64,000 nt of DNA from Gammaproteobacteria bacterium (GCA_034522075.1 JAXHLO010000022.1:59104-123103), one strand, 5' to 3'; shown: positions 26,587-37,954, counted from the first letter of the stretch. The notes: generated by a model from the letters alone, not told the origin. A program made the numbers and translations.

Positions 26587-27015
26587 ATGCAGAACCGAAA
26601 CCGCCTTTCCCTCCGCCTGCTCGCCACGCTTATGCCCACACTGGTACTCATGAGCCCGGCAGTCAATGCCGAATCCGATCAGCCAGCCTATGATGGAACC
26701 GATCTGTACCTCAACAACTGCGCGAACTGTCATGGCGTATACGGAGAGGGGGACGGTATCGTCACCCCCACCCTATCGACGGTCCTGCTCGACCTGCGCT
26801 ATCTGAGCGCCCGCAACGACGGCACTTTCCCTCGCGACTTCGTCACCGACATCATCGACGGACGCGCCACTCGCGCCACCCACGGCCCGGAGGGTATGCC
26901 GGTGTGGGCCGCTGAGTTCTCCCGCCAGGAGGGTTTCGACGAACAGGCCGAAGCACGGGTCACGGCAAAGATTGACGCCCTGGTCAATTTCCTGGAGCAG
27001 ATTCAGCGGCAATGA
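26587..27015 (+). CDS. monoheme c-type cytochrome
   Basis: Signal peptide, heme motif CANCHG and distal GMPVW. GGAGAAGACC lies just before ATG 26587. Confidence 0.75.
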   Translation: MQNRNRLSLRLLATLMPTLVLMSPAVNAESDQPAYDGTDLYLNNCANCHGVYGEGDGIVTPTLSTVLLDLRYLSARNDGTFPRDFVTDIIDGRATRATHGPEGMPVWAAEFSRQEGFDEQAEARVTAKIDALVNFLEQIQRQ

Positions 27016-27057
27016 CTCGCCATTGCCGCTGCATGCCCCGGCCCCCGGGTGGCAACC

Positions 27058-28437
27058 CTAAACGTAAAAGTCCAGCTCTTCCAGTGACTTGAGCAGGTCG
27101 CGCATTTTGATCGGATCGTCGCCGAAGAAGAATACAAGACCCCAGTGCGTGCCGAATGCGGAGCGGTCCGGCACCGTTTCCTCTGCCGGTTCAGGGAGCT
27201 CGTGCGACTCGAAATAGGGATGGTCGACACACTCGGGCGGCAGTTGCAGCTTACTGACGACCCGACGACGCGGGTAGACGCCGAAACAACCGGCGTAGCC
27301 GTGCGCGTCGACCACTTCATCGGGAAAGAACGCTCTGACTTCCTGTTTCGTGGTCTTCGGATCGAATACCAGCATTGACGCCTGGTAAGCGCTGAAGCCA
27401 TAGGCGCGCTCGATGAGCTCAAAGGCTTTGAATCCGGGCGGCCGGTAGGCTACTTCGCCGAAGTACATCTCGCCGTCTGCGGTCACGAAGTACTCGGGGT
27501 GAATCAGGCCGAATTGAATGTCGAAGGTCTTGATGAGCTTCTCGACCTGCTGTGTAATCGCATTCCGCCAGCTCTCAAGCTCTTTGGTGGCCGGAACGAA
27601 CACCGAGTACCCGAGGGTGACGTATTCCGAAATGTTCAGAAACTGGATCTTGCCATTGTGAATCCAGGCTTCAACGGCGAATTCCCATCCGCTGAGATGG
27701 CTCTCCATGAGCAGGGGATACTCTTCATCCGGAATCAGGTCGATCTCTTCCATGGTCCGGATCATCCGGTGGCCGAGACAGCCCGCTTTGTCGAAGGCCT
27801 TGACGTGAATCGGGTCGTCGGGGTCGCCCTCAAGCTTCAGCAGCGTCTGGTTGACGCGTTTCATGAAGCGCACGATGTCGTCCTTCTCGTGCGCCTCTTC
27901 GAAGATGCCGACCCGGATGCCGCCGAGCTGCGCGCGCCGCTTCATCAGAGCTTTGTCGCGGAAGAGGATGGACTGGCCATACATGCGGGGGTTGTCCAGA
28001 AGAACAGAGTTGATCGCGCCCGACCATTCCACCGTTTCTTCAAACAGGGGAATGGCTACATCGACGCCACGCTCTTTAAGGACTTCGGCGATCTCCATGG
28101 AGCGATCGTTCAGGCGCACGAAATCCCAGGGGATGAACGGAATTTTGTTGGCTTCGCAGAAGTCTGCGGCCCATTCCGGAGCAACGACCACGTAGCGCCG
28201 ATCAAACTTCTGTGCCGCCTTGATCGCATTGAGGCTCCAGCCCAGAAGTGCAATGAAGCCTTTTGAGGGATCCTTTTCCCGTTCCGTGCCTTTGGTGGAA
28301 TCGAGCGTGGGGTCGACCCAGGACGCCAGGTTCGGATCCATGGCACCGGCACCCGACTGCTCAGGCTGACGCTCAGCTGCCTTGGCTGGCATATCTGAAG
28401 AGGATTTAGTGGGTTGGCTTGACTCTGATGTCGACAT
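27058..28437 (-). CDS. ATP-grasp domain-containing ligase with a low-complexity N-terminal extension
   Basis: 459 aa. The central and C-terminal ATP-grasp lobes read DKALMKRRAQLGGIRVG...VKAFDKAGCLGHRMI...LMESHLSGWEFAVEAWIHNGKIQFLNISEY...HPEYFVTADGEMYFGEVAYRPPG. AAGGAG lies 8 nt before the ATG. GC is visibly lower than in the flanks. Confidence 0.8.
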   Translation of the reverse strand: MSTSESSQPTKSSSDMPAKAAERQPEQSGAGAMDPNLASWVDPTLDSTKGTEREKDPSKGFIALLGWSLNAIKAAQKFDRRYVVVAPEWAADFCEANKIPFIPWDFVRLNDRSMEIAEVLKERGVDVAIPLFEETVEWSGAINSVLLDNPRMYGQSILFRDKALMKRRAQLGGIRVGIFEEAHEKDDIVRFMKRVNQTLLKLEGDPDDPIHVKAFDKAGCLGHRMIRTMEEIDLIPDEEYPLLMESHLSGWEFAVEAWIHNGKIQFLNISEYVTLGYSVFVPATKELESWRNAITQQVEKLIKTFDIQFGLIHPEYFVTADGEMYFGEVAYRPPGFKAFELIERAYGFSAYQASMLVFDPKTTKQEVRAFFPDEVVDAHGYAGCFGVYPRRRVVSKLQLPPECVDHPYFESHELPEPAEETVPDRSAFGTHWGLVFFFGDDPIKMRDLLKSLEELDFYV

Positions 28438-28627
28438 AATTGAAGGCTCCTTGTCGTCGTCCGCATGGCTTTGGTAGTGCGTTCACCAAGCACTCCAGCG
28501 ACGCTGCTTTATGTCGTTCATCTATCGTCGCTGACGATGCACACCATCTTCGTTTGAGAGTCAGTATACAGCATATCTGTTCGGAAGACAGACGAAGCCA
28601 TGCGCAGCAGAACGCCCCCGTCAGAGT

Positions 28628-30601
28628 TCAGCGCTTTGCCGCCCAACTGCCGCGCGCAAGCTTCACTACGGTGCTGACGTCTTCAGCCGGCACATCTTCT
28701 GGCGCACCTATCTCGAGCGGATCGTAGTGGAACACATAGAGCCGCGATACGAATTCAGCGACAGGCAGAGATGCCTCGCCATAGAGCTCACCATGGCCGT
28801 GTGTCGACGTTATGATCCCCTGGCCCCAGTTCTGACCACTGTCGTTATTGGGATTGAAAAAATAGACCCGCATGCGGCTCCCGGGGTCGAGTGCAAGACG
28901 CTGGATAGTGATGGCGTGCCAGCCAAGAAACCGGCTCGAACTGTCGGTGACGGCGATACCGGCAGGCTGCGGGCTGATAACGGGCAGATTGCCATTGTAA
29001 TAGGGGTGATAGCTGGCATAGAAATCTCTGACAAAGCCATCGAAGTCCTTCAGGCCGCCCGTGTAAACATCGACCGCAATGCGAAACCCCAGCCCGACGT
29101 GATCGCCGTGGAACTCGGCATTGACCCACTTGTGAGGATCTTCGCCGCGTCCCACGCTGCGGCGGCCCATCTCATAGTAGATACGATCGAGATGGGGCAC
29201 GGTAATCAGGGACACGGCATCCACATCGACCGGCGGCTCGGTCGCGAGGCCGGCGCTCAGCACGCTGGAGGAAATGCTCGACCCTTCGAAGCGCATGACG
29301 ACTTCATCGTCCCGTGCGGCCCAGGCGATGATACGCAGCAAGACATCGGGCTCATTGTAAGCCCACATCGAGATGGCGCGGGTCGACTGGCAGGTCGGGT
29401 AATTGCCCTGGCCGACGCCCAGCGGAAGTCCGAGCACATTGATCACGTCGGCCAGAAGATAGCACTCAGGAGAACGGACGGTTCCGAACACTTCGGTAAT
29501 CTTGTTCGCCGCCACAGCGCACAGCGGAAGCCTGATCTGGCGCCACAGCGATGGGGCCACCGGCGGCGAGAAAAGAACGCCTCGTTCGAGCAGCATAGCC
29601 AACCCATAGGCGGCCTGGCTGGTTTCGGGGAATACCGCTTCATCGATCAATCGGTGTATCAGCGCGGGATAGCAATCAAACGCTTCCGCTCCAGTGTGGC
29701 TCAGACCGAGCGCGGTGGGAATCAGTTCGTTCCAGCGGGTACGAAGGTGATGAATCAGAACCGGCAGATAGGGCGAAACAAGCCCGGTTCGGTGCATGGC
29801 CTGGGCAAAGGCAATGGCCTCCTGCAGCAGCGTGGCGTCATCCATCACCGCAAGACGCTCACGGTATATCTCGAACCCCGGATCCTCACGACAGCCCTCG
29901 CTCGGACTGAAAACCGAAGTGACCAACTCCTGCGCATCCGCCCCGGCTTCGCCTTCCAGCACATCCGGGCGGCTCATGCAGCCGGCGATCTGGGTCACCA
30001 TGTGCTTGATACCGTTCACCTGAACGGGACGCTGCTCAAGAATCCGCCAGACTTCAGCCACCAGATTCTCGAGCAGGTTCTCATAGCCCAGATGCTCGAG
30101 CAGATAGCGGTACAGGTTCTGAACGGCATAGCCGAGACGGTCTGGCCGTAGTCGATCCGCCTCCTGCAGCTCGCCCACCACGAGATCCAGGTTCATCGCC
30201 ATGACCTGAGCGAGGAAGTGCTGGGCATACTCGGCTGACAGGCTCGCGTGGGTGTAGTCTCCCTTGGCAACCGCGAGGATGCGAATCTCACTCAGAATTT
30301 CGACCTGTGAGGCGACCACCTCACCGTAACGTACGGTTCGTGCGGCGAATGCGGGGACCAGGGTTTGAGGGTAGTCCCAGTCACTGCCGCGAAAGAGGCC
30401 GGCATTCTCGAACGCAGGCACGCGCAGGTAGAGCTCACTGATTCCACCCGGCTCGAGCATCAGCGCCTGTGCCGGCTCGAGCACATCGAAAATTGCCGAT
30501 ACACCGCCATCGGCGTTGTCCGCGGCGAGCCGGTTGATGGCGCTATCGATTCGCTGCGTCAGTGTGCTCAGAATGTCGGGCTCATGTCCGTGAACGCTCA
30601 T
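28628..30601 (-). CDS. uncharacterised 657-aa protein, with a C-terminal half carrying a papain-like Gln/Cys/His/Asn constellation
   Basis: GQGNYPTCQS (Gln398, Cys404), GWHAITI (His562) and FFNPNND (Asn583). The N-terminal about 390 aa are helical with no motif I recognise. It lies directly upstream of the ATP-grasp gene on the same strand. Confidence 0.6.
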   Translation of the reverse strand: MSVHGHEPDILSTLTQRIDSAINRLAADNADGGVSAIFDVLEPAQALMLEPGGISELYLRVPAFENAGLFRGSDWDYPQTLVPAFAARTVRYGEVVASQVEILSEIRILAVAKGDYTHASLSAEYAQHFLAQVMAMNLDLVVGELQEADRLRPDRLGYAVQNLYRYLLEHLGYENLLENLVAEVWRILEQRPVQVNGIKHMVTQIAGCMSRPDVLEGEAGADAQELVTSVFSPSEGCREDPGFEIYRERLAVMDDATLLQEAIAFAQAMHRTGLVSPYLPVLIHHLRTRWNELIPTALGLSHTGAEAFDCYPALIHRLIDEAVFPETSQAAYGLAMLLERGVLFSPPVAPSLWRQIRLPLCAVAANKITEVFGTVRSPECYLLADVINVLGLPLGVGQGNYPTCQSTRAISMWAYNEPDVLLRIIAWAARDDEVVMRFEGSSISSSVLSAGLATEPPVDVDAVSLITVPHLDRIYYEMGRRSVGRGEDPHKWVNAEFHGDHVGLGFRIAVDVYTGGLKDFDGFVRDFYASYHPYYNGNLPVISPQPAGIAVTDSSSRFLGWHAITIQRLALDPGSRMRVYFFNPNNDSGQNWGQGIITSTHGHGELYGEASLPVAEFVSRLYVFHYDPLEIGAPEDVPAEDVSTVVKLARGSWAAKR

Positions 30602-30740
30602 GTGCTCCTCCTGGATCGTGCCAGGTTTTCAGTGATGCAGGGGCAGTCTAGGGGGTTAGTTGGGCGCCGTCATTCGTGGCGGAGAGGGAGGCGTAAGGGA
30701 TAGTCGACTGCCTTCGGCGTACTCCATCGCGCTCTTTTTT

Positions 30741-33700
30741 CTACCGCACGATCACGAGACGAGCATCGAACTCACCGCCCGGTGCCAGCTCCATGGTCAA
30801 TCTCAGGCCGCTCATGGACTGTCCACCGGGCCCGTCGCGCAACAAACCGTCCGGCCGCCACTCGCCAAGAAAGATGCCCTCGAACGCGTGGGACGGATCG
30901 CCGTCGTCGACTACTATTCGGCCGAGCTCGCCGCCGTCGTGCAGACCGGTGACAACGATGTGCATCCGCTGATCGCCTTCGCGCTGTCCGCGCGTGCCGC
31001 GAATCACAAAGGGCGGCAGCACGCCTGACGGCCAGTGCAACTCTGCGGTGTAGCGCACGGGTTGAAGCAACTGCCGTATCGCGGGGCTGTCCGCCTGCCG
31101 ATAGCGTTCGGCCTCGCCGGCCGACAACGGATGCCGGACGGCAACACTGAACGCGAACAGCGAATCCGCCTCACCTTGCGGGTAGGGGACAACGCGTGCG
31201 GTACCGGCAGCATCGAATGGCGGCGTTTGATCGGCCGCCGGCTCCAGAGGGTCTTCGGCCGTCGATCCGGCTAGTGCGTGCAACCCCAGCGCGGACGGCG
31301 ACTGTCCTGACGCGAATGCGTAGGTATTCTGAGGTGCTGCCTGAATCGACGTGGCCAGCCAGTTCAGCCCGACAGCCCGTTGATCGGTGCGGGTCTCGGC
31401 ACGCGCGGACAGCGAGCCTTCGGCAGCCGCGCCCTGTGCCTGTGCATCCGCCAAGGCGAACACCGGACCGGCGCCGGACAGCGCTTTGGCGTGCACCTGC
31501 AAGACGTTCCTCGTGAATCCCGCCGCACGCGATTCCGCGGCACCTGCTTCTGCATCGAGCCGAGCATCGCCCCCGCGCGCGTTGCTGTCGATCTGCAGAC
31601 GTGGGGCCTGCTCGGCCCGCACTGTCACCTCGCTGCTCGCAAAGCCACCGTTGGCGGGCAGAACGCCCTCCGGCCGTGCGCTGCCCGCTGCCGCATCACT
31701 CTGCACGGCGACATCTTCACTGGCCGCTGATTCGACGGTAACCCGGGACAGCGCATCGCCGCCGATACCGAACTGTTCCGCCCAGTCGATGCCCTCACTT
31801 CGCGCCGCGCCGTATTTTGCCGCATCTTCGCGGCTGAGCTCCACGCTGCCTTTCGCGCCGGGACCACCGGTCGATTCGACGCGGATATCGACTTTGCCTG
31901 CGCCGGCCGGTGCGGTTGCGGCCGCTTCGAGCAAGGCCGTGCCGCCGGCGCCACTGGCGTCGCCGGTGCCCGCCGCACCGCCCAGCGCCTCACCGCGCAG
32001 GATCAGCTCACCACCTGAATTGCTGCCCCCGAGGGTCACCCGCGCATCACCGCCGCCGCCTCCCTCGTGACCATCGCCACCTTTGCTTTCGGCCATCAGG
32101 TACAAGCGCTCACCGTCGTGCGAACGCTGCAGCCGGTTGCTCGCGTCGGCACCCTGGCCCGCGCGGGTATCGTTGTTGCCACCGGTTGCACGCTGCTCCA
32201 GTCGCAGCCTGCCACGCGTCTTGCCACCGACGACGTTGTCGATGTGGGCTTCAGATGGACGGCTGCCGGAACCAGCGCTGGACCGCACCCGGATCGTCAC
32301 ATCATCGTTATGCTTCGATTCGGCGAAGAAATCACCGAGTTCCGCGAGACCACCCGCGCCGCCCGCGCCGCCCCGACTGGTACCGCTGATGACGATCGGT
32401 CCAAGGCTGATCACCTTCGCCGCGGTTTTCGCTCTGCCGCCGGACGCTCCCCCGCTGCCGCCGTTCGCCGCCACATCGACGTTGATGCGCTCGAGGCCCT
32501 GGTGTGTGAAGTCCACGGTGGACTCGGCGCTTCCACCGCTGCTGCCCCGTCGACCGCTGCCCCCGCGCGCCACCTGCTGCAGGCTGGCCCGACCGGTCGT
32601 CCTGACAACGGCCGCGTTATTCAGCGTGATGGCGCCACCGCCACCGGCACCGCTGCCACCACCCGCATTGACGCGCACTTTAGCGTCACCGCCACCGGAT
32701 GAGATAGCCTGTGCCGATGCACTCGCACCGGCCCCGGCGCTGCCAGTCGCCTTGCCCCTGCCGCCGCCACCGCCGGACGCGCGCGCGCTCGCCTCGACGG
32801 AACCAGGACCCGAATTTCTGGCAATCGCGGTCGCAGATCCGGACCCGGCAGCGCCGCCCGAACCGCCGCTGCCACCGGTGCCGCCATCACCCCGCGCTGT
32901 GGCCTTGGCATCGCCGCGCACGGCCGTCGCAAAAGCATTGGCGCTACCCGAACCGCCGGCGCCGCCAATTCCGGCGTTCGAAGAACTGCCAACCCCACGC
33001 ACGGTACCGCCGCCACCACCTCGGGCAACCGCGTCAACACTGACGTCTCCATCGCCGGTCGTGCTCGCACGTGCCAGCGCAGTGGTAGGGCCACCGCGTC
33101 CGCCGTTGCCGTCCCTGACGGCACCGCCCCCGGCACCACCGCCGGCGCGGGCCGTGGCTTCGCTGTTGAAATTCAGGTTGGCGGATTCTGCGGTCGCCGA
33201 TGCGCTGGCCCCCGCGGCACCATTACCTGCCTTGCCATCGGCTCCGTCGCCAGCGCCGGTGCCTCCTGCCCCGCCGGCGCCACCGCCAGCACCCGCGGCA
33301 GTGGCGTGTGCCTCCGTTTTGACGGGATCACCGCTCGCAATACCTTGAGTCCAGTCGGTGATCGCAGTGGCCACGGCACTTTCGGCCGACCCGCCGTCCG
33401 CACCCTCGCCGCCTGCCGCGTCCTCGTCGTCTTCGCCCTCCGGGCTTCCCGGCCCACCGGAGCCGCCTTGTCCGCCAGAGGTACCACGGCCATCGGCAAC
33501 GGCACGGTTAACGGGATCGGCCGAGCGAGCGACTGCAGAGCCGATCTTGGCCGCAAAACCGGGCGAACCGCGCTCGCCTGGATCGCCCGCCTCACCGTCG
33601 GCACCATCCAGGCCGGGGACGCCTTCGCGGACGACCTCGCGCGCGTCGGCAGTCAACGCGACGGCCAGCGCTAACGCTGCAAGCCCGATCCAGGCAAGCC

Positions 33701-33746
33701 TTGGCAAACGGATGCGCCGCGGCGCGGGAATCTCTATTGCAGCCAT
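30741..33746 (-). CDS. 1001-aa secreted Gly/Ala-rich repeat protein with a short collagen-like segment
   Basis: Signal-like RRIRLPRLAWIGLAALALAVALTADA. Seven Gly-X-Y triplets follow (GVPGLDGADGEAGDPGERGSPG), then about 15 degenerate Gly-run/short-strand units and a non-repetitive C-terminal about 250 aa. Confidence 0.6.
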   Translation of the reverse strand: MAAIEIPAPRRIRLPRLAWIGLAALALAVALTADAREVVREGVPGLDGADGEAGDPGERGSPGFAAKIGSAVARSADPVNRAVADGRGTSGGQGGSGGPGSPEGEDDEDAAGGEGADGGSAESAVATAITDWTQGIASGDPVKTEAHATAAGAGGGAGGAGGTGAGDGADGKAGNGAAGASASATAESANLNFNSEATARAGGGAGGGAVRDGNGGRGGPTTALARASTTGDGDVSVDAVARGGGGGTVRGVGSSSNAGIGGAGGSGSANAFATAVRGDAKATARGDGGTGGSGGSGGAAGSGSATAIARNSGPGSVEASARASGGGGGRGKATGSAGAGASASAQAISSGGGDAKVRVNAGGGSGAGGGGAITLNNAAVVRTTGRASLQQVARGGSGRRGSSGGSAESTVDFTHQGLERINVDVAANGGSGGASGGRAKTAAKVISLGPIVISGTSRGGAGGAGGLAELGDFFAESKHNDDVTIRVRSSAGSGSRPSEAHIDNVVGGKTRGRLRLEQRATGGNNDTRAGQGADASNRLQRSHDGERLYLMAESKGGDGHEGGGGGDARVTLGGSNSGGELILRGEALGGAAGTGDASGAGGTALLEAAATAPAGAGKVDIRVESTGGPGAKGSVELSREDAAKYGAARSEGIDWAEQFGIGGDALSRVTVESAASEDVAVQSDAAAGSARPEGVLPANGGFASSEVTVRAEQAPRLQIDSNARGGDARLDAEAGAAESRAAGFTRNVLQVHAKALSGAGPVFALADAQAQGAAAEGSLSARAETRTDQRAVGLNWLATSIQAAPQNTYAFASGQSPSALGLHALAGSTAEDPLEPAADQTPPFDAAGTARVVPYPQGEADSLFAFSVAVRHPLSAGEAERYRQADSPAIRQLLQPVRYTAELHWPSGVLPPFVIRGTRGQREGDQRMHIVVTGLHDGGELGRIVVDDGDPSHAFEGIFLGEWRPDGLLRDGPGGQSMSGLRLTMELAPGGEFDARLVIVR

Positions 33747-33748
33747 AA

Positions 33749-33886
33749 CGAACGTCCGAATTGATAGGAACAGTGAGCCTGACTCAACTTACAGATACTG
33801 ACTGCAAGCTCGGATACTGGATAGGCGTTCCCTACTGGGGCAACGGATATTGTACGGAGGCGGTGGACGCTGTTGTTGATTTTTGA
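33749..33886 (+). pseudogene. 5'-truncated GNAT (RimJ/RimL-type) N-acetyltransferase remnant
   Basis: An open frame with no start codon reads LIGTVSLTQLTDTDCKLGYWIGVPYWGNGYCTEAVDAVVDF*, which is the acetyl-CoA-binding core (lGYwl...yWGkGyatEA). Weaker continuation in shifted frames runs to about 34000 (ENHPS...AMTFHSG). It begins 3 nt from the start codon of the 1001-aa gene. Confidence 0.5.
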
Positions 33887-34005
33887 CTCAAAGAATACGG
33901 GCTCCCGCTGGTTTACGCGAGGCACCTGAGAGAAAATCACCCTTCAGAAAGCGGGGATGCAATGACATTTCATTCGGGTACCGATCCAGAACTCAGGGAG
34001 ACACC

Positions 34006-34689
34006 ATGCTCGAAAAGATCGCAGGAAAACTCAAAGCTGCCGAGGATCAGGCCCGTCAGACAGAAGCCGGGATGGCCGAGCAATTCGACGACCCGATCGC
34101 CCGGAAAACCGGCTGGACGCGTCTTCATGGAGGCGGCTCCTCCGGCCGAACTCGCAAGCTATCCGAGAACTCGACCGGCCAAATCCGGGTAGTCAACACG
34201 CTGCGTGGCCTGATTCTTCCCATCGTTTTCGGACTTGCCGCGATCGCCCTGGTCACATTCGGGACCATCGATCTCTTCCGTTCGATGACCAGTGATGCTG
34301 TAGACATGTCGATCACGGGTTTCCTGGTCCTGCTGTTTGCCGCGGCATTCGTGTCATTGCCTGCGTATCTAACCCTCCGGCCCAAAGAGCGGCTGACCTT
34401 CGACAAGGCGTCAGGATATTTCTGGCGCGGCCGCAAACCGGCTTCACTCGGGGACAGCGATGAGGCACACCGTCTGGAGCGGATCAAGGGCTTGCAAATT
34501 CTTCCCAAGTACATTCAAAAAGTCAGTCAGGGCCGCAATGATAGCTACTGGAGCTACGAGTTCAATCTCATCCTCGACGACCATGAACGGATGCTGGTGA
34601 CCGACCACGGCGACCGCAGAGCCACTCGGGCCGATGCCGAAAAACTGGCCCGCATCCTGGACGTTCCGGTGTTCGAGGCCTCGCAATAG
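34006..34689 (+). CDS. hypothetical membrane protein (two TM helices)
   Basis: GGGAG lies before ATG 34006. MLEKIAGKLKAAEDQ..., with helices LILPIVFGLAAIALVTFGTI and ITGFLVLLFAAAFVSLPAYL. I recognise no family. Confidence 0.5.
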   Translation: MLEKIAGKLKAAEDQARQTEAGMAEQFDDPIARKTGWTRLHGGGSSGRTRKLSENSTGQIRVVNTLRGLILPIVFGLAAIALVTFGTIDLFRSMTSDAVDMSITGFLVLLFAAAFVSLPAYLTLRPKERLTFDKASGYFWRGRKPASLGDSDEAHRLERIKGLQILPKYIQKVSQGRNDSYWSYEFNLILDDHERMLVTDHGDRRATRADAEKLARILDVPVFEASQ

Positions 34690-34751
34690 TCAGGCTCTCG
34701 GCTGCTACCAAGTACAGGTTTGCAGGTAAGTGGGTATTCCTCGCTGCTCTC

Positions 34752-34860
34752 GTGCCACGCCCTCGGGTCAATCTCACCCGTTATCACGGCGTCTTCGCCC
34801 CGAACTCGCCCATGCGCCGCGCGATCGTGCCAGCACCGGCACGCGTTCGGCGGCAAAAGC
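34752..34860 (+). mobile_element. IS91-family transposase C-terminal scrap
   Basis: PRPRVNLTRYHGVFAPNSPMRRAIVPAP matches the conserved ...R.HGVFAPNS..R..v.P block near the C-terminus of IS91/IS801 transposases. Nothing else of the gene is present. Confidence 0.5.
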
Positions 34861-35133
34861 CCAAAGACTCAGCCACTGCGCAGGCAACCCGGCAACACCC
34901 CGCAGATTCTTCCACCGACCGAGCCGAGCACCACCACACCCCCTCCCGATCTGTTCGCCAAACGCCGATAAGTCTCAGGCAAAGGCACCTCCGGCGCTAA
35001 CCCGGAAAACGACCCGTTGTTCTTCCTATTCGCCCCCGACTTCGCAATTCCCCCCACCACGTGTCCGCCAAAATCCCGCATCCGAATGAGCAGTCCGCTC
35101 GATCCGTCCGTTCACGTCCAGAACCAATCCAGT

Positions 35134-35667
35134 TCAGATCGGATACCCTCGACGGCAATACAAACTAACTCCGGAGCAAAGCCCCGCTGAAACTCCTCGT
35201 ATAAACGCCACCAATTGCCAACCTGAATGCATCGCCTGTTCCGGAGGGGTTGGTGACGGGCGTGACCACGTAGACAGCGACGACACACAGTTGGCGGAGA
35301 GGGAGGGATTACCGCCGCCGCTACGCGGCGACGTTCTCTTCAGCTCACGCTTCGCGTGAGCCTTACCGGAAATGGCGGTGGCCAGTATGGCGTTGTCGTC
35401 GGGGTCTGGCGATAACTCCACCGTCGGCAGTTCTTGCAGCACGGTTGCCTGGCGCCGCAATCCGTTCACCAGCGTGCCCGCTTCGGCGGGTCTGAGGTAC
35501 TTGGTCAGTTTCTGATAGCGGGAAACACGGCGGAGCTCTTCGAGTTGGGACTCAGAGGTGATCAGTTCAAAGGCCTTCTTGCGCCAAGCCCGGTAGATCA
35601 AATCGGGCGGCGTACCAGAAGTGATCAATGCGGCAAGCAGGATTCCAGTGTCAAGAACAACCCGCAA
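35134..35667 (-). pseudogene. PIN-domain toxin (TIGR00305-like) interrupted by a 72-nt repeat element
   Basis: MRVVLDTGILLAALITSGTPPDLIYRAWRKKAFELITSESQLEELRRVSRYQKL...SPDPDDNAILATAISGK is a normal PIN N-terminal two thirds. The reading frame then runs into the repeat at 35291-35362. Expected ADYLVTGD...EF-like pieces (AVYVVT, GHARHQPL, WWRLYEEF) appear downstream only in shifted frames. Confidence 0.55.
35289..35362 (-). repeat. tRNA-Ser 3'-end mimic (22 nt) plus one 52-nt double-hairpin unit
   Basis: AGTTGGCGGAGAGGGAGGGATT is identical to 63048-63069 (the tRNA 3' end plus 3 nt). It is followed by ACCGCCGCCGCTACGCGGCGACGTTCTCTTCAGCTCACGCTTCGCGTGAGCC. That tail is 50/52 identical to 62919-62970, and both differences fall in hairpin loops. 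Confidence 0.8.
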
Positions 35668-35672
35668 AACTG

Positions 35673-35900
35673 TTAGCCGTTGGCCAAAGCTTCGTTGATC
35701 GCCTCTAAGATGTCATCCTGCCGATAATCCCGGTTGCGCTGCTTCACGTCCTGAACCGTTAGTTCGAACAGGCGCGCCTGGACCGCCTCTTCCACGAACT
35801 GGGAGAGATCACCCTTTTTCGTACCACGCCGGCCCAAGTAAGCCCGCAGGCTCTTGTCCACGTCGCCCCGCACGACGATCGACCATCGAACCGTGCTCAT
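35673..35900 (-). CDS. ribbon-helix-helix antitoxin (XACb0070-like) paired with the PIN gene
   Basis: MSTVRWSIVVRGDVDKSLRAYLGRRGTKKGDLSQFVEEAVQARLFEL... has a 4-nt gap to the PIN start. It matches my memory of RHH antitoxins beginning MSTVRWNISV. Confidence 0.6.
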   Translation of the reverse strand: MSTVRWSIVVRGDVDKSLRAYLGRRGTKKGDLSQFVEEAVQARLFELTVQDVKQRNRDYRQDDILEAINEALANG

Positions 35901-36124
35901 TTGTGTTCTCCGAGGGAATTTCCCGATCACAATCTACGCTTATCCGCATAAACGTACAAGCGTATAGGCATTTAACCGACGTTTTCGGCGGCTTTTAGCA
36001 GATAGTCTCGCCCGATCAGCGGCGGCACCCAACATCAGGTGGTTGATGAATGTCTTCATGGATGTCATCCCACTCCAGGGACCTAATCGTACTGAACGGT
36101 CAGTTTTCGCTATAGTTCCACAGC

Positions 36125-36940
36125 ATGTTGATCAGCAACACAGGTTCAGACGGAGTGAGAGTGCAACAGATCGGCGCCCCGCTCGGCGCCGTCGCCGACG
36201 GCGTCGATGTGCGCGGGTTGAGCGAGGCGCAATTCGCGGAGGTGCAGGCGCTGTTTCAACGCCATCACGTGCTCGTCTTCCGCGGCCAGACCCTCACTCC
36301 AGAGGAGCAGCTCATCTTCGGGCGGCGCTGGGGCAAGCTGGTGCGACACCCCTACGCGGGCATGAAGGCTTACCCCGACATCATCGAGCTGAAGAATCCC
36401 GGTAAGGCCAGGGATATCAATCAGCACTGGCATTCGGATATGACCTACAACCCGGCCCCGCCGAAGCTGACCATGCTCTACGCCCTGGAGGCGCCCGACA
36501 TCGGCGGCGATACAGCCTTCGCCAATCAGGCGCTGGCCTATGCGGAACTCTCTGAAGGCTTGCGCCGGGTGGTGGATTCCCTGCGGGCGGTGCACTCTGC
36601 CGAAGGCCTGGCTGGCCGGTACGGGGCAGACCCGGCCGAGGCACCGCGCGCCGAGCATCCGGTGGTGCGCACCCACGACGAAACCGGCCAGCGTGCGCTT
36701 TACGTCTGCCGTGCCTTCACCCGCCGCTTCGTGGGCTGGACGCGGGAGGAAAGCGCCGGGCTGCTGGAGTACCTGTTCAACCACAGCGTGCGCCCCGAGT
36801 TCCAGGCCCGGCACGCGTGGCGCCCGGGCGACCTGGTGCTGTGGGACAACCGCTGCCTGCTGCACTTCGCCGTGCACGATCACGGCGATGCAGCGCGGCG
36901 GATTCATCGCCTGCAGGTGTCGGGCCCGGTGCCCGCCTGA
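36125..36940 (+). CDS. TauD/TfdA-family Fe(II)/2-oxoglutarate dioxygenase
   Basis: NQHWHSDMTY (HxD iron motif), ...DTAFANQ..., and WRPGDLVLWDNRCLLHFAVHDH (distal His and Arg region). Confidence 0.85.
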   Translation: MLISNTGSDGVRVQQIGAPLGAVADGVDVRGLSEAQFAEVQALFQRHHVLVFRGQTLTPEEQLIFGRRWGKLVRHPYAGMKAYPDIIELKNPGKARDINQHWHSDMTYNPAPPKLTMLYALEAPDIGGDTAFANQALAYAELSEGLRRVVDSLRAVHSAEGLAGRYGADPAEAPRAEHPVVRTHDETGQRALYVCRAFTRRFVGWTREESAGLLEYLFNHSVRPEFQARHAWRPGDLVLWDNRCLLHFAVHDHGDAARRIHRLQVSGPVPA

Positions 36941-37076
36941 GCGGACTCGAGAGATCACACCGCCGGATGATCGAGTCCGCTGCCCACCTGGTGGATCACA
37001 TGCTGCCGCAACAGCCCATTCGGCAGTGGGTGCTTGAATGATCCATGCGCTGGAGCTCGGTCGTAACGCTGGGCGT

Positions 37077-37639
37077 CTACACCCCGTCAAACAGCACGAA
37101 CACCCCAATGGAGATGAAAACGGCGGCAGCAACGCCATCTGGATCAAGGCGCAGCGGCAGCCGCTCCGCGCTGAAGCGTCGCCGAGCGCCCACGGGGTAC
37201 GTTGGCCAGCCATCATGCCTGCCGTTGTTCCCAGCACCACCATCCAGACCGGTTCGTACTTGGCGGCAAGCACGACGGTGGCGATCTGGGTCTTGTCGCC
37301 GATCTCGACCAGGAAGAACGCGATCAGCGTCGTTAGAAACGCGCCATATGGGTAGCTAGCCGCGGCATCATCCTCCTTGTCGGGAACAAGAATCCACAGA
37401 CCCATGGCGATGAAGGCGCCGGCGACCAGCCAGCGGAGAACTGCAGGGTCCAGGAGCCGACTTATCCAGCCGCCAATCTCGGCGGCGATGCCGTGATTGG
37501 CCAGGGTTGCGAGCAGGATGCCAGCGATGATGGGCCAGGGCTTGCGGAAGCGGGCTGCGAGAACCAGCGCGAGGAGTTGGGTCTTGTCGCCGATTTCGGC
37601 AAGCGCCACCGAGACGGTGGAAATCAGAAAAGTATCCAA
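37077..37639 (-). pseudogene. GDT1/TMEM165 (UPF0016) family cation transporter with a frameshift near the 3' end
   Basis: Two E-x-G-D-K-T motifs are present (VALAEIGDKTQLLAL and FFLVEIGDKTQIATV). After ...GTTAGMM the expected tail (ANVP...FSAERLPLRL...AAAVFISIGVFVLFDGV*) is found only in the other two frames. The probable start is TTG at 37639. Confidence 0.6.
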
Positions 37640-37954
37640 GATCAGTCCAGAGGGGCAGGAGACGCTACCTATGACACGCCGCCTCGCCCCACCCCGGTTC
37701 AAGGTCGCCGTGTCAAAGGTCTCGCCAGGCCCGCAGGCCGCGCACACCATGATCCATGCGGATCAAGTGTGTTGATGCACGCCCTTCGCCAGCCGGCGAA
37801 GGAGGCTACTCCCCTAAGACGCGAAAAACTATACGCATGGGCTGGCGATGGCACAAGGCGGCTGGGCCCTGGGAAAGTACGTAGCTGCAGGCAACATCAG
37901 AACCGATTCGATATGGTAGATTTCAGGTCCATGCCTTCTAGTCGGACCACAGAT

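Follow-up and report, generated by a model that had tools for sequence, protein, structure and literature searches.

A conserved gene pair of marine and salt-loving bacteria encodes an ATP-grasp ligase and a predicted calpain-fold cysteine hydrolase: a candidate system for making and breaking an amide bond

Glutathionylspermidine synthetase/amidase (GspSA), present in Escherichia coli and in trypanosomatids, unites an ATP-dependent carboxylate-amine ligase with a papain-fold thiol amidase, so that one and the same amide bond is made and broken. On proteins, TTL adds a residue to the C-terminus of tubulin that is removed by the cysteine peptidase vasohibin, and RimK makes additions to ribosomal protein S6. 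ATP-grasp amidoligases linked to peptidases (transglutaminase-like enzymes or metallopeptidases) and to GNATs were reportedly described by Iyer, Abhiman, Burroughs and Aravind in 2009, who are said to have proposed peptide metabolites or tags as their purpose. Here, we describe a gene pair that recalls these systems. It lies in a 64,000-nucleotide stretch of DNA from Gammaproteobacteria bacterium (GCA_034522075.1 JAXHLO010000022.1:59104-123103), which is referred to as the window and in which positions 27,058 to 33,746 are the focus. The pair consists of the gene of an ATP-grasp carboxylate-amine ligase and the gene of a 657-residue protein encoded at 28628-30601 on the minus strand, for which we use the working name X657 and which is predicted to be a cysteine hydrolase. 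There is strong comparative evidence that the two genes form a functional couple. The open reading frames (ORFs) of the focus, the domains of X657 and its putative catalytic residues are as follows:

27058..28437, minus strand: gene of the ATP-grasp carboxylate-amine ligase, 459 residues (ORF; Pfam and PDB profile matches)
28438..28627, minus strand: spacer of 190 bp between the ligase gene and the X657 gene
28628..30601, minus strand: gene of X657, a predicted cytoplasmic, clan-CA-like cysteine hydrolase, 657 residues (ORF; alignment; AlphaFold model)
28631..29431, minus strand: predicted C-terminal calpain/papain-fold domain of X657, residues 391-657 (domain-only model and Foldseek)
28853..28918, minus strand: His562 (28916-28918) to Asn583 (28853-28855), putative general base and orienting Asn in a beta-hairpin (codons verified)
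29390..29410, minus strand: Gln398 (29408-29410) to Cys404 (29390-29392), putative oxyanion-hole Gln and nucleophile (codons verified)
29432..30601, minus strand: predicted N-terminal all-alpha domain of X657, residues 1 to about 390 (DSSP on the AlphaFold model)
30741..33746, minus strand: gene of a glycine-rich protein, 1001 residues (ORF)

An earlier reading of the window, made from the sequence alone (the sequence-only reading), had placed the three minus-strand ORFs at 27058-28437, 28628-30601 and 30741-33746, and both these coordinates and the lengths of 459, 657 and 1001 residues are exact. The motifs that it had picked out in X657, GQGNYPTCQS (with Gln398 and Cys404), GWHAITI (His562) and FFNPNND (Asn583), contain the residues it named, as a check of the codons confirmed. 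A Shine-Dalgarno sequence precedes the ATG of each gene of the pair (AGGAGG for X657, AAGGAG for the ligase). In scans of the 190-bp spacer, neither a promoter-like nor a terminator-like site was seen, nor any Rfam match, and a search for a riboswitch in 26800-31200 returned no Rfam match at E ≤ 1. In other genomes, the length of the spacer varies from overlapping stop and start codons up to about 360 bp, and therefore, a conserved small ORF inside it is unlikely.

Among the described systems, GspSA offers the closest functional analogy to the pair, if the predicted activities are taken at face value. However, GspSA is one fused protein, made of a CHAP amidase and a Gsp-synthetase domain, whereas the window has separate genes from different families, and neither CHAP nor GSP_synth was matched in Pfam by either protein at E ≤ 1. 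The Pup ligase/depupylase system (PafA/Dop) differs as well: no match to Pup_ligase was found, and the folds here are ATP-grasp and papain folds and not glutamine-synthetase-like. Both systems had been invoked for the pair, and after these Pfam tests they serve as functional analogies but not as its families. The pair shares the general theme of ligase, peptidase and GNAT with the amidoligase-peptidase neighborhoods; CP_ATPgrasp, Alpha-E and Transglut_core were matched neither by the pair proteins (E ≤ 1) nor by 42 members of the X657 family (E ≤ 0.1). The tubulin tyrosination cycle and RimK are likewise analogies only; no sequence relationship was found. A comparison with graspetides of the microviridin type gave no recurrent ORF of 80 residues or more besides the two genes themselves (shorter ORFs were not searched systematically), and the conservation of the ligase is atypical of enzymes for ribosomally synthesized and posttranslationally modified peptides. 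None of the three proteins matched a PADLOC model of anti-phage defence (E ≤ 0.1).

The linkage of the two genes was followed in two samples, one of 82 loci seeded with X657 (80 from one-genome-per-species contigs) and one of 83 loci seeded with the ligase (80 from metagenome contigs); single loci are given below by L numbers. The only recurrent neighbor of X657 in the first sample is the ligase, which lies at most 3 kb away in 37 of the 82 loci. Conversely, 29 of the 83 ligase-seeded loci have X657 no more than 10 kb from the ligase, and in 27 of these the distance is 3 kb or less. The two genes occur in three arrangements, with X657 before the ligase on the same strand, with the ligase before X657 on the same strand, and divergently, and their flanks differ even among the closest relatives of the window's pair (L003/L088 and L048). 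Adjacency holds from 91% down to 43% identity of the ligase and in genomes of 37 to 68% guanine plus cytosine (GC). Five distant X657 homologues (32 to 37% identity, genomes of 37 to 58% GC) have the triad intact; in each of the five, an ATP-grasp_4 gene immediately precedes that of X657 on the same strand, and in two of them the stop codon of the one overlaps the start codon of the other. These neighboring ligases are 43 to 52% identical to that of the window. The homologue P0300 (L174/L175:6001-7836), which has neither His562 nor Asn583, has no adjacent ligase. Thus, synteny of the pair was found across very distant genomes. The linkage survives deep divergence, the genes are rearranged without being separated, and the linkage is lost along with the catalytic residues, and it is for these reasons that we regard the pair as a functional couple. 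In a metagenome-assembled genome of the Pseudomonadales (L048:9986-15874), two X657 paralogues flank one ligase (X657a-ligase-X657b), and both paralogue groups occur beside the ligase. A run of the ligase, a long X657 and a short X657 of about 608 residues is seen in a genome of about 40% GC (L170:2407-7827).

X657 itself has no match in Pfam-A, NCBIfam, PADLOC or the sequences of the PDB. Searches with the single sequence and with a 42-sequence profile returned only noise (PriC, CurR, designed PPR repeats), and no Pfam family was common to more than one of 42 diverse members scanned singly. The homologues fall into more than 1875 clusters at 90% identity, every one of them labelled 'hypothetical', and most of these clusters belong to marine or halophilic Gammaproteobacteria, namely Marinobacter, Halomonas/Vreelandella, Halospina, Halovibrio, Saccharospirillum, Halioglobus and their relatives. 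At 50% identity, 254 clusters were counted among 1.84 billion representatives, with full-length members of about 600 to 690 residues, and the one-genome-per-species contigs hold at least 583 matching stretches.

An alignment of 42 members (identity down to 30%, mean column identity 41%) has only 26 invariant columns. Gln398 and Cys404 are among them (42/42), as are Trp75, Glu101 and Arg107 of the N-terminal domain. His562, Asn583 and Asn585 are each retained in 41 of the 42 sequences; the sole exception is P0300, in which His562 and Asn583 have been lost together and the Cys has been retained. Judged from this alignment, the Gln/Cys/His/Asn set is not a chance pattern. Since Asn585 is as well conserved as Asn583, either of them may be the orienting residue. 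P0300 may be a pseudo-enzyme that has acquired a binding role; its gene lies upstream of an amino-acid-type ABC transporter and of TrkH/TrkA potassium-uptake genes. The family contains two paralogue groups, one with about 75% and the other with about 55% identity to the window's X657, and several Marinobacter genomes carry both of them at separate sites. It is possible that the paralogues form a heteromeric or a subfunctionalized pair.

The predicted structure agrees with the reading of these residues. The AlphaFold2 model of full-length X657, built from the 42-member alignment, has a mean predicted local distance difference test (pLDDT) of 90.5 and a predicted template-modelling score of 0.88. 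By DSSP, it contains helices alone up to about residue 391, followed by an alpha/beta domain (391-657). Cys404 is the first residue of helix 404-416, His562 lies within strand 558-571, and Asn583 follows directly after the next hairpin strand, 577-582; in the model, this placement of Cys, His and Asn is the arrangement of the papain fold. The sequence-only reading had proposed a complete papain-type set that follows some 390 helical residues, and both the model and the conservation in 41 to 42 of 42 homologues back it. With the full-length model, Foldseek gave nothing but weak matches to helical repeats (PPR, NOT1 and armadillo, probability ≤ 0.16) and m-calpain at a probability of 0.8, and the C-terminal domain was therefore modelled again alone. 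The model of residues 380-657 has a pLDDT of 92.8, and its top 19 Foldseek matches in the PDB are all calpain protease cores (probability 0.75 to 0.99), among them calpain-3 (6bjd, E = 1.4e-3, probability 0.99, template-modelling [TM] score 0.40), calpain-1 (1zcm and 1kxr) and m-calpain (3bow and 3df0). The alignments span the whole domain. The calpains are followed in the list by papain-family C1 enzymes (cathepsins, falcipain and bromelain) and staphopain.

The likeness to the calpain core may go further. In m-calpain, the spacing from Cys to His is 157 residues and the Asn-Pro motif is RNPWG; X657 has a spacing of 158 and FNPNN. As in the calpain core, a Gln stands six residues before the Cys, the His lies in a hairpin strand and the Asn just past the next strand. 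On the other hand, X657 has no C2-like or EF-hand domains but an N-terminal helical domain of its own (about 390 residues), and it is bacterial, predicted to be cytoplasmic, and encoded by a gene that is linked to that of an ATP-grasp ligase. A search of the PDB sequences with the single sequence or the profile found no calpain chain at E ≤ 10. Because the TM scores are only 0.36 to 0.43 and no sequence matched Peptidase_C2, the models lead us to class X657 as a new family with a calpain-like clan-CA fold and not as a calpain (MEROPS C2). In the model, the features of clan CA are present: the Gln before a Cys at the N-terminus of a helix, the His and Asn at adjacent strands, and the overall fold.

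The 459-residue protein had been called an ATP-grasp enzyme before, and this is borne out by Pfam and by a profile search of the PDB. PF13535 (ATP-grasp_4) is matched at 27.0 bits, exactly the gathering score (E = 3.9e-6). A single-sequence search of the PDB gave weak matches to L-amino-acid ligases, and a profile that included phylum-level orthologues matched the L-amino-acid ligase RizA (4wd3) at E = 1.9e-10 over 269 of 410 positions, followed by 4dim (7.7e-7), BL00235 (3vot, 1.7e-4) and then PurK and carbamoyl-phosphate-synthase-like chains. Orthologues from different phyla, down to 43% identity, all retain Lys213, Glu315, Glu328 and Arg332. Glu315 and Glu328-x(3)-Arg332 align with the corresponding RizA motif, and ATP/Mg-binding roles are assigned to them by analogy only. 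Residues 1 to about 50 are variable and of low complexity; the C-terminal region of about 100 residues is family-specific and ends in a conserved D-F-Y-[VL]. The tail (E/D)xDFY[VL]-COOH (27058-27075 in the window) is present in 10 of 11 orthologues across phyla, and the eleventh has 11 extra residues past FY. By its sequence, the protein is an intact ATP-grasp carboxylate-amine ligase.

RizA and BL00235 are the nearest solved relatives, with an alignment over about two-thirds of the profile that includes GE-x(3)-R-x(2)-G. However, the window ligase is remote from them, has its own C-terminal region and is far more conserved than is usual for ligases of secondary metabolism; moreover, the known L-amino-acid ligases lie within antibiotic gene clusters, whereas the window ligase is encoded next to a putative cysteine hydrolase. 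The closest NCBIfam model is scored at 25 bits against a cut-off of 302, and elsewhere the protein is annotated as 'carboxylate--amine ligase' only. A characterized pathway-specific clade that would include the ligase was looked for, and none was found. The sequence comparisons thus place it outside any characterized clade, with closest characterized relatives that join free amino acids.

Base composition and divergence indicate how long the pair has resided in its hosts. The whole-gene GC of the ligase (57.5%) and of X657 (60.2%) is below the 64.0 ± 3.0% of 32 other window ORFs that show coding-type GC by codon position. The deficit is confined to codon positions 1 and 2, that is, to amino-acid composition, and GC at third positions (GC3) is 0.72 for the ligase and 0.70 for X657, within one standard deviation of the reference (0.748 ± 0.066). 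The foreign look ascribed to these genes goes back to GC values of 50, 60 and 77%, which are extremes of single 60-nucleotide lines, and it disappears in GC3, which is typical for the window. Compared with orthologues, third positions are 0.37 to 0.66 identical, and the third positions of conserved four-fold-type codons 0.34 to 0.65. The GC3 of orthologues tracks the host (0.52 at a locus of 45% GC, 0.84 at one of 68%), and among plasmid records, a homologue is encoded by a single one of 1.8 Mb. Because synonymous sites are near saturation, GC3 follows the host and plasmid records are limited to this one, we conclude that the pair is a long-term resident under strong purifying selection. The same data speak against island status of the pair and against a recent horizontal acquisition; for the whole module, horizontal acquisition had been suggested in the sequence-only reading.

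On the protein level, the ligase is 81 to 91% identical to its orthologues across gammaproteobacterial genera, and one cluster at 90% identity (P0128) spans Marinobacter, Vreelandella, Kineobactrum and Hydrogenovibrio. Within Halomonas, the identities are 87% for X657 and 93% for the ligase; between genera, they are 84% and 91 to 92%. This pattern fits either few free sites that are saturated under extreme constraint or an old exchange among marine Gammaproteobacteria. The conservation of both proteins exceeds what would be expected for these taxa and reaches a level that would be expected only of core translation proteins.

Further genes recur around the ligase. In 11 of the 83 ligase-seeded loci, a Peptidase_Mx zinc peptidase (322 residues, PF15887, E = 1e-79) is encoded no more than 3 kb from the ligase, and in 7 of these 11 it is directly upstream on the same strand; the ligase orthologues concerned are about 81 to 88% identical to the window ligase. 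Further neighbors at this distance are an amidohydrolase of the HDAC type (9 of the 83 loci), a GNAT acetyltransferase (5 loci) and a solitary EctC-type cupin (PF06339; 10 loci); these three kinds are seen in loci of Gammaproteobacteria. Examples from L083-L167 are L136:8743-9708, L132:11412-12512, L164:1849-2244 and L098:10147-10689. Between loci, these four kinds of neighbor are 74 to 92% identical. That alternative hydrolases recur beside the same ligase orthologue suggests that the product of the ligase is turned over by hydrolysis, and the pairing with Peptidase_Mx fits a ligase that needs a hydrolase partner. X657 and the four neighbors may belong to one dispersed pathway.

In more distant lineages, a gene of the alanine-racemase family lies directly downstream of the pair (L168:8105-9430 and L171:5564-6340), an M42 peptidase also follows the pair in L168, and a GNAT precedes it in L170. 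In L172:1-6004, the pair ends the run argC-argB-argD-GNAT-argJ-GNAT-ligase-X657. The alanine racemase and the arg cluster are possible clues to the substrates of the ligase, namely a D-amino acid, and ornithine or compounds related to N-acetylglutamate. Taken together, the neighbors are for the most part enzymes that handle amino acids and small amides, and they hint at an amino-acid-derived compound that is possibly N-acetylated or contains a D-amino acid. The MscS, BCCT, TrkH, OsmC and EctC-type neighbors give a weak hint at an osmolyte role. MscS, NYN and Mqo look like cases of lineage-specific synteny; a SIR2 gene is a neighbor in L085. Apart from the pair, no ORF of 80 residues or more recurs around the loci (ORFs below 80 residues were not searched systematically), and no conserved target or tag gene accompanies the pair among the recurrent neighbors in the sampled loci.

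The third ORF of the focus is a real gene as well. Its product is rich in Gly, Ala and Ser, with a signal-peptide-like N-terminus and a conserved, non-repetitive C-terminal region, and its GC by codon position is high throughout (0.74/0.64/0.70). No match was found in Pfam, NCBIfam or PADLOC, and the DNA contains no long tandem repeats. Among 5.8 billion proteins, the only clear homologues are two collinear full-length ones (52 and 38% identity); three further matches are weak or partial. Both homologues lie on short metagenome contigs without a single neighbor in common with the window, and one of them has a vWA-like motif by eye, for which no domain search was run. The gene was found beside the pair in none of the 165 sampled loci (82 X657-seeded and 83 ligase-seeded), and on this synteny, the glycine-rich protein is rejected as a partner of the pair. 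The functional unit is two genes and not three.

Next to the glycine-rich gene, and not to the pair, lies a disrupted region (33750-36100) of gene fragments and genes of mobile type, which contains the following:

33761-33886: internal GNAT fragment, matching Acetyltransf_3 positions 66-107 of 138
33883-34689: ORF of 268 residues, no match
34752-35000: possible tail of an IS91 transposase (motif RYHGVFAPNS, no Pfam match)
35134-35667: PIN toxin
35673-35930: RHH_6 antitoxin

The GNAT remnant noted earlier at this place is thus real, and it matches that part of the Acetyltransf_3 model only. For the IS91 scrap at 34752, Pfam returned nothing, and its sole support is the motif RYHGVFAPNS, which we take to be that of an IS91 transposase. 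Further on, a minus-strand ORF of 534 residues (36146-37750) matches GDT1 near its N-terminus only and overlaps the plus-strand gene of a TauD-family dioxygenase (36125-36940, E = 2e-65); the ORF as called is probably too long, and the true GDT1-type gene far shorter.

How might the ligase and X657 work together? In our model, to which we give an even chance, they are a ligase and a thiol hydrolase that make and break one small, amide-linked product in the cytoplasm. The ATP-grasp enzyme would activate the carboxylate of an amino acid or a small peptide as the acyl-phosphate and join it to an amine, giving an amide (a peptide or isopeptide bond). Cys404 of X657 would attack a bond of the same kind and, via a thioester intermediate, hydrolyze it or transfer the acyl group. 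In this reaction, Gln398 would contribute the oxyanion hole, Cys404 the nucleophile and His562 the general base, which Asn583 or Asn585 would orient. Together, the two enzymes would set the level of the product. The analysis shows directly that the proteins have these predicted folds, that their key residues are conserved and that the genes have been linked over a deep evolutionary span; we infer the chemistry of the reactions, the direction of each and a compound common to both enzymes. In this form, the pairing of an ATP-dependent ligase with a thiol amidase, as put forward in the sequence-only reading, is retained as the best working model on the grounds of fold, residues and synteny; the glycine-rich partner is not part of it.

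Several points weigh against the model. The two genes are not adjacent in about 55 to 65% of the sampled loci, and ligase orthologues occur without X657 inside 8 to 10 kb, so strict co-dependence of the two is not established. The likeness to calpains is at the level of the fold only (TM 0.36 to 0.43, E about 1e-3), and Peptidase_C2 (PF00648) is matched neither by X657 at E ≤ 1 nor by any of the 42 members at E ≤ 0.1. Papain-fold enzymes may also be transferases, deamidases or acyltransferases. A big helical domain, a calpain-like core and high conservation fit a macromolecular substrate at least equally well, and the literature searched contained no work on either family.

A first rival of the model is a reversible protein modification, in which the ATP-grasp enzyme would add one or more amino acids to the C-terminus or a side chain of a conserved protein, and the calpain-fold enzyme, gripping this protein by its helical domain, would remove them. 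We consider this unlikely. In its favor, the helical domain of about 390 residues, with its weak matches to protein-binding helical repeats (probability ≤ 0.16), stands before the core of a protein endopeptidase, the ligases are 81 to 91% identical between genera despite near-saturated synonymous sites, and the GNAT, HDAC-like and SIR2 (L085) neighbors could write or erase protein acylation. However, the nearest solved relatives of the ligase are RizA and BL00235, which join free amino acids, and neither RimK nor TTL; a gene for a conserved target or tag does not recur beside the pair in the sampled loci, and the alanine racemase, the arg cluster and the EctC-type cupin are small-molecule neighbors. 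It is imaginable, although rather doubtful, that the pair is writer and eraser of a peptide-type modification, the aminoacylation of a highly conserved protein of the cell, with the helical domain docking the target protein, and thus a prokaryotic counterpart of the tubulin tyrosination cycle, perhaps in a salt or osmotic context; such a role would explain why both proteins are conserved like components of core translation. Alternatively, the two enzymes could act one after the other in a biosynthesis, with X657 using the peptide made by the ligase as acyl donor (as a transpeptidase, acyltransferase or polymerase) or maturing it. Papain-fold enzymes with Cys/His/Asn(Asp) include transferases, and phytochelatin synthase, a papain-fold enzyme, acts on glutathione, which is made by an ATP-grasp enzyme. 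In distant lineages, the order ligase-X657 with overlapping stop and start codons suggests equimolar co-expression in one pathway, and these apparent operons also include GNAT and alanine-racemase genes, which have a biosynthetic look. Nevertheless, sequence and fold do not distinguish transfer from hydrolysis, the pairing of the ligase with the unrelated Peptidase_Mx and the HDAC-type amidohydrolase points to hydrolysis of the product, and the literature searched yielded no such oligomeric product, which makes a sequential role rather improbable as well.

Two further explanations concern the locus and not the chemistry. According to the first, which goes back to the sequence-only reading, all three genes were acquired horizontally as one module with the secreted glycine-rich protein as partner or target. 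The genes are indeed consecutive and on one strand, the glycine-rich gene is closely preceded by gene remnants and a toxin-antitoxin pair, and the whole-gene GC of the pair is under the window mean. Yet the glycine-rich gene is absent from all 165 loci and its two clear homologues stand in unrelated contexts; by inspection, the pair proteins have no signal peptide, whereas the glycine-rich protein has a signal-peptide-like N-terminus, which puts them in different compartments; and the typical GC3, the near-saturated synonymous sites, the host-tracking GC3 of orthologues and the single plasmid record speak against recent transfer. This makes the module very improbable, and of the acquisition claimed for it, a recent transfer of the pair finds no support in these data. 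According to the second, the adjacency would be synteny inherited in one lineage, and the enzymes would be functionally unrelated. The 55 to 65% of loci without adjacency would agree with this, but three arrangements, different flanks in every lineage examined, a span from 91 to 43% ligase identity and 37 to 68% GC, and the missing linkage in the one catalytically degenerate member leave it hardly any credibility.

In sum, both folds and the logic of a ligase combined with a thiol amidase were already known; what is new is the family of the hydrolase, the way in which its domains are combined and its association with the ligase. X657 represents a sizeable and confidently modelled bacterial family of calpain fold that neither Pfam nor NCBIfam covers and of which the literature searched makes no mention. 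If X657 and the recurrent neighbors of the ligase do form one pathway, Peptidase_Mx and the solitary EctC-type proteins, for which the literature has not settled a function, would gain a context. The pair is ancient and very strongly conserved in salt-loving and marine bacteria, and its carriers include Halomonas, Marinobacter and their relatives, which serve as models of salt adaptation and as industrial hosts. If our model is true, these hosts would contain an undiscovered small peptide or amide metabolite; on the rival reading, they would contain a new reversible modification of proteins.

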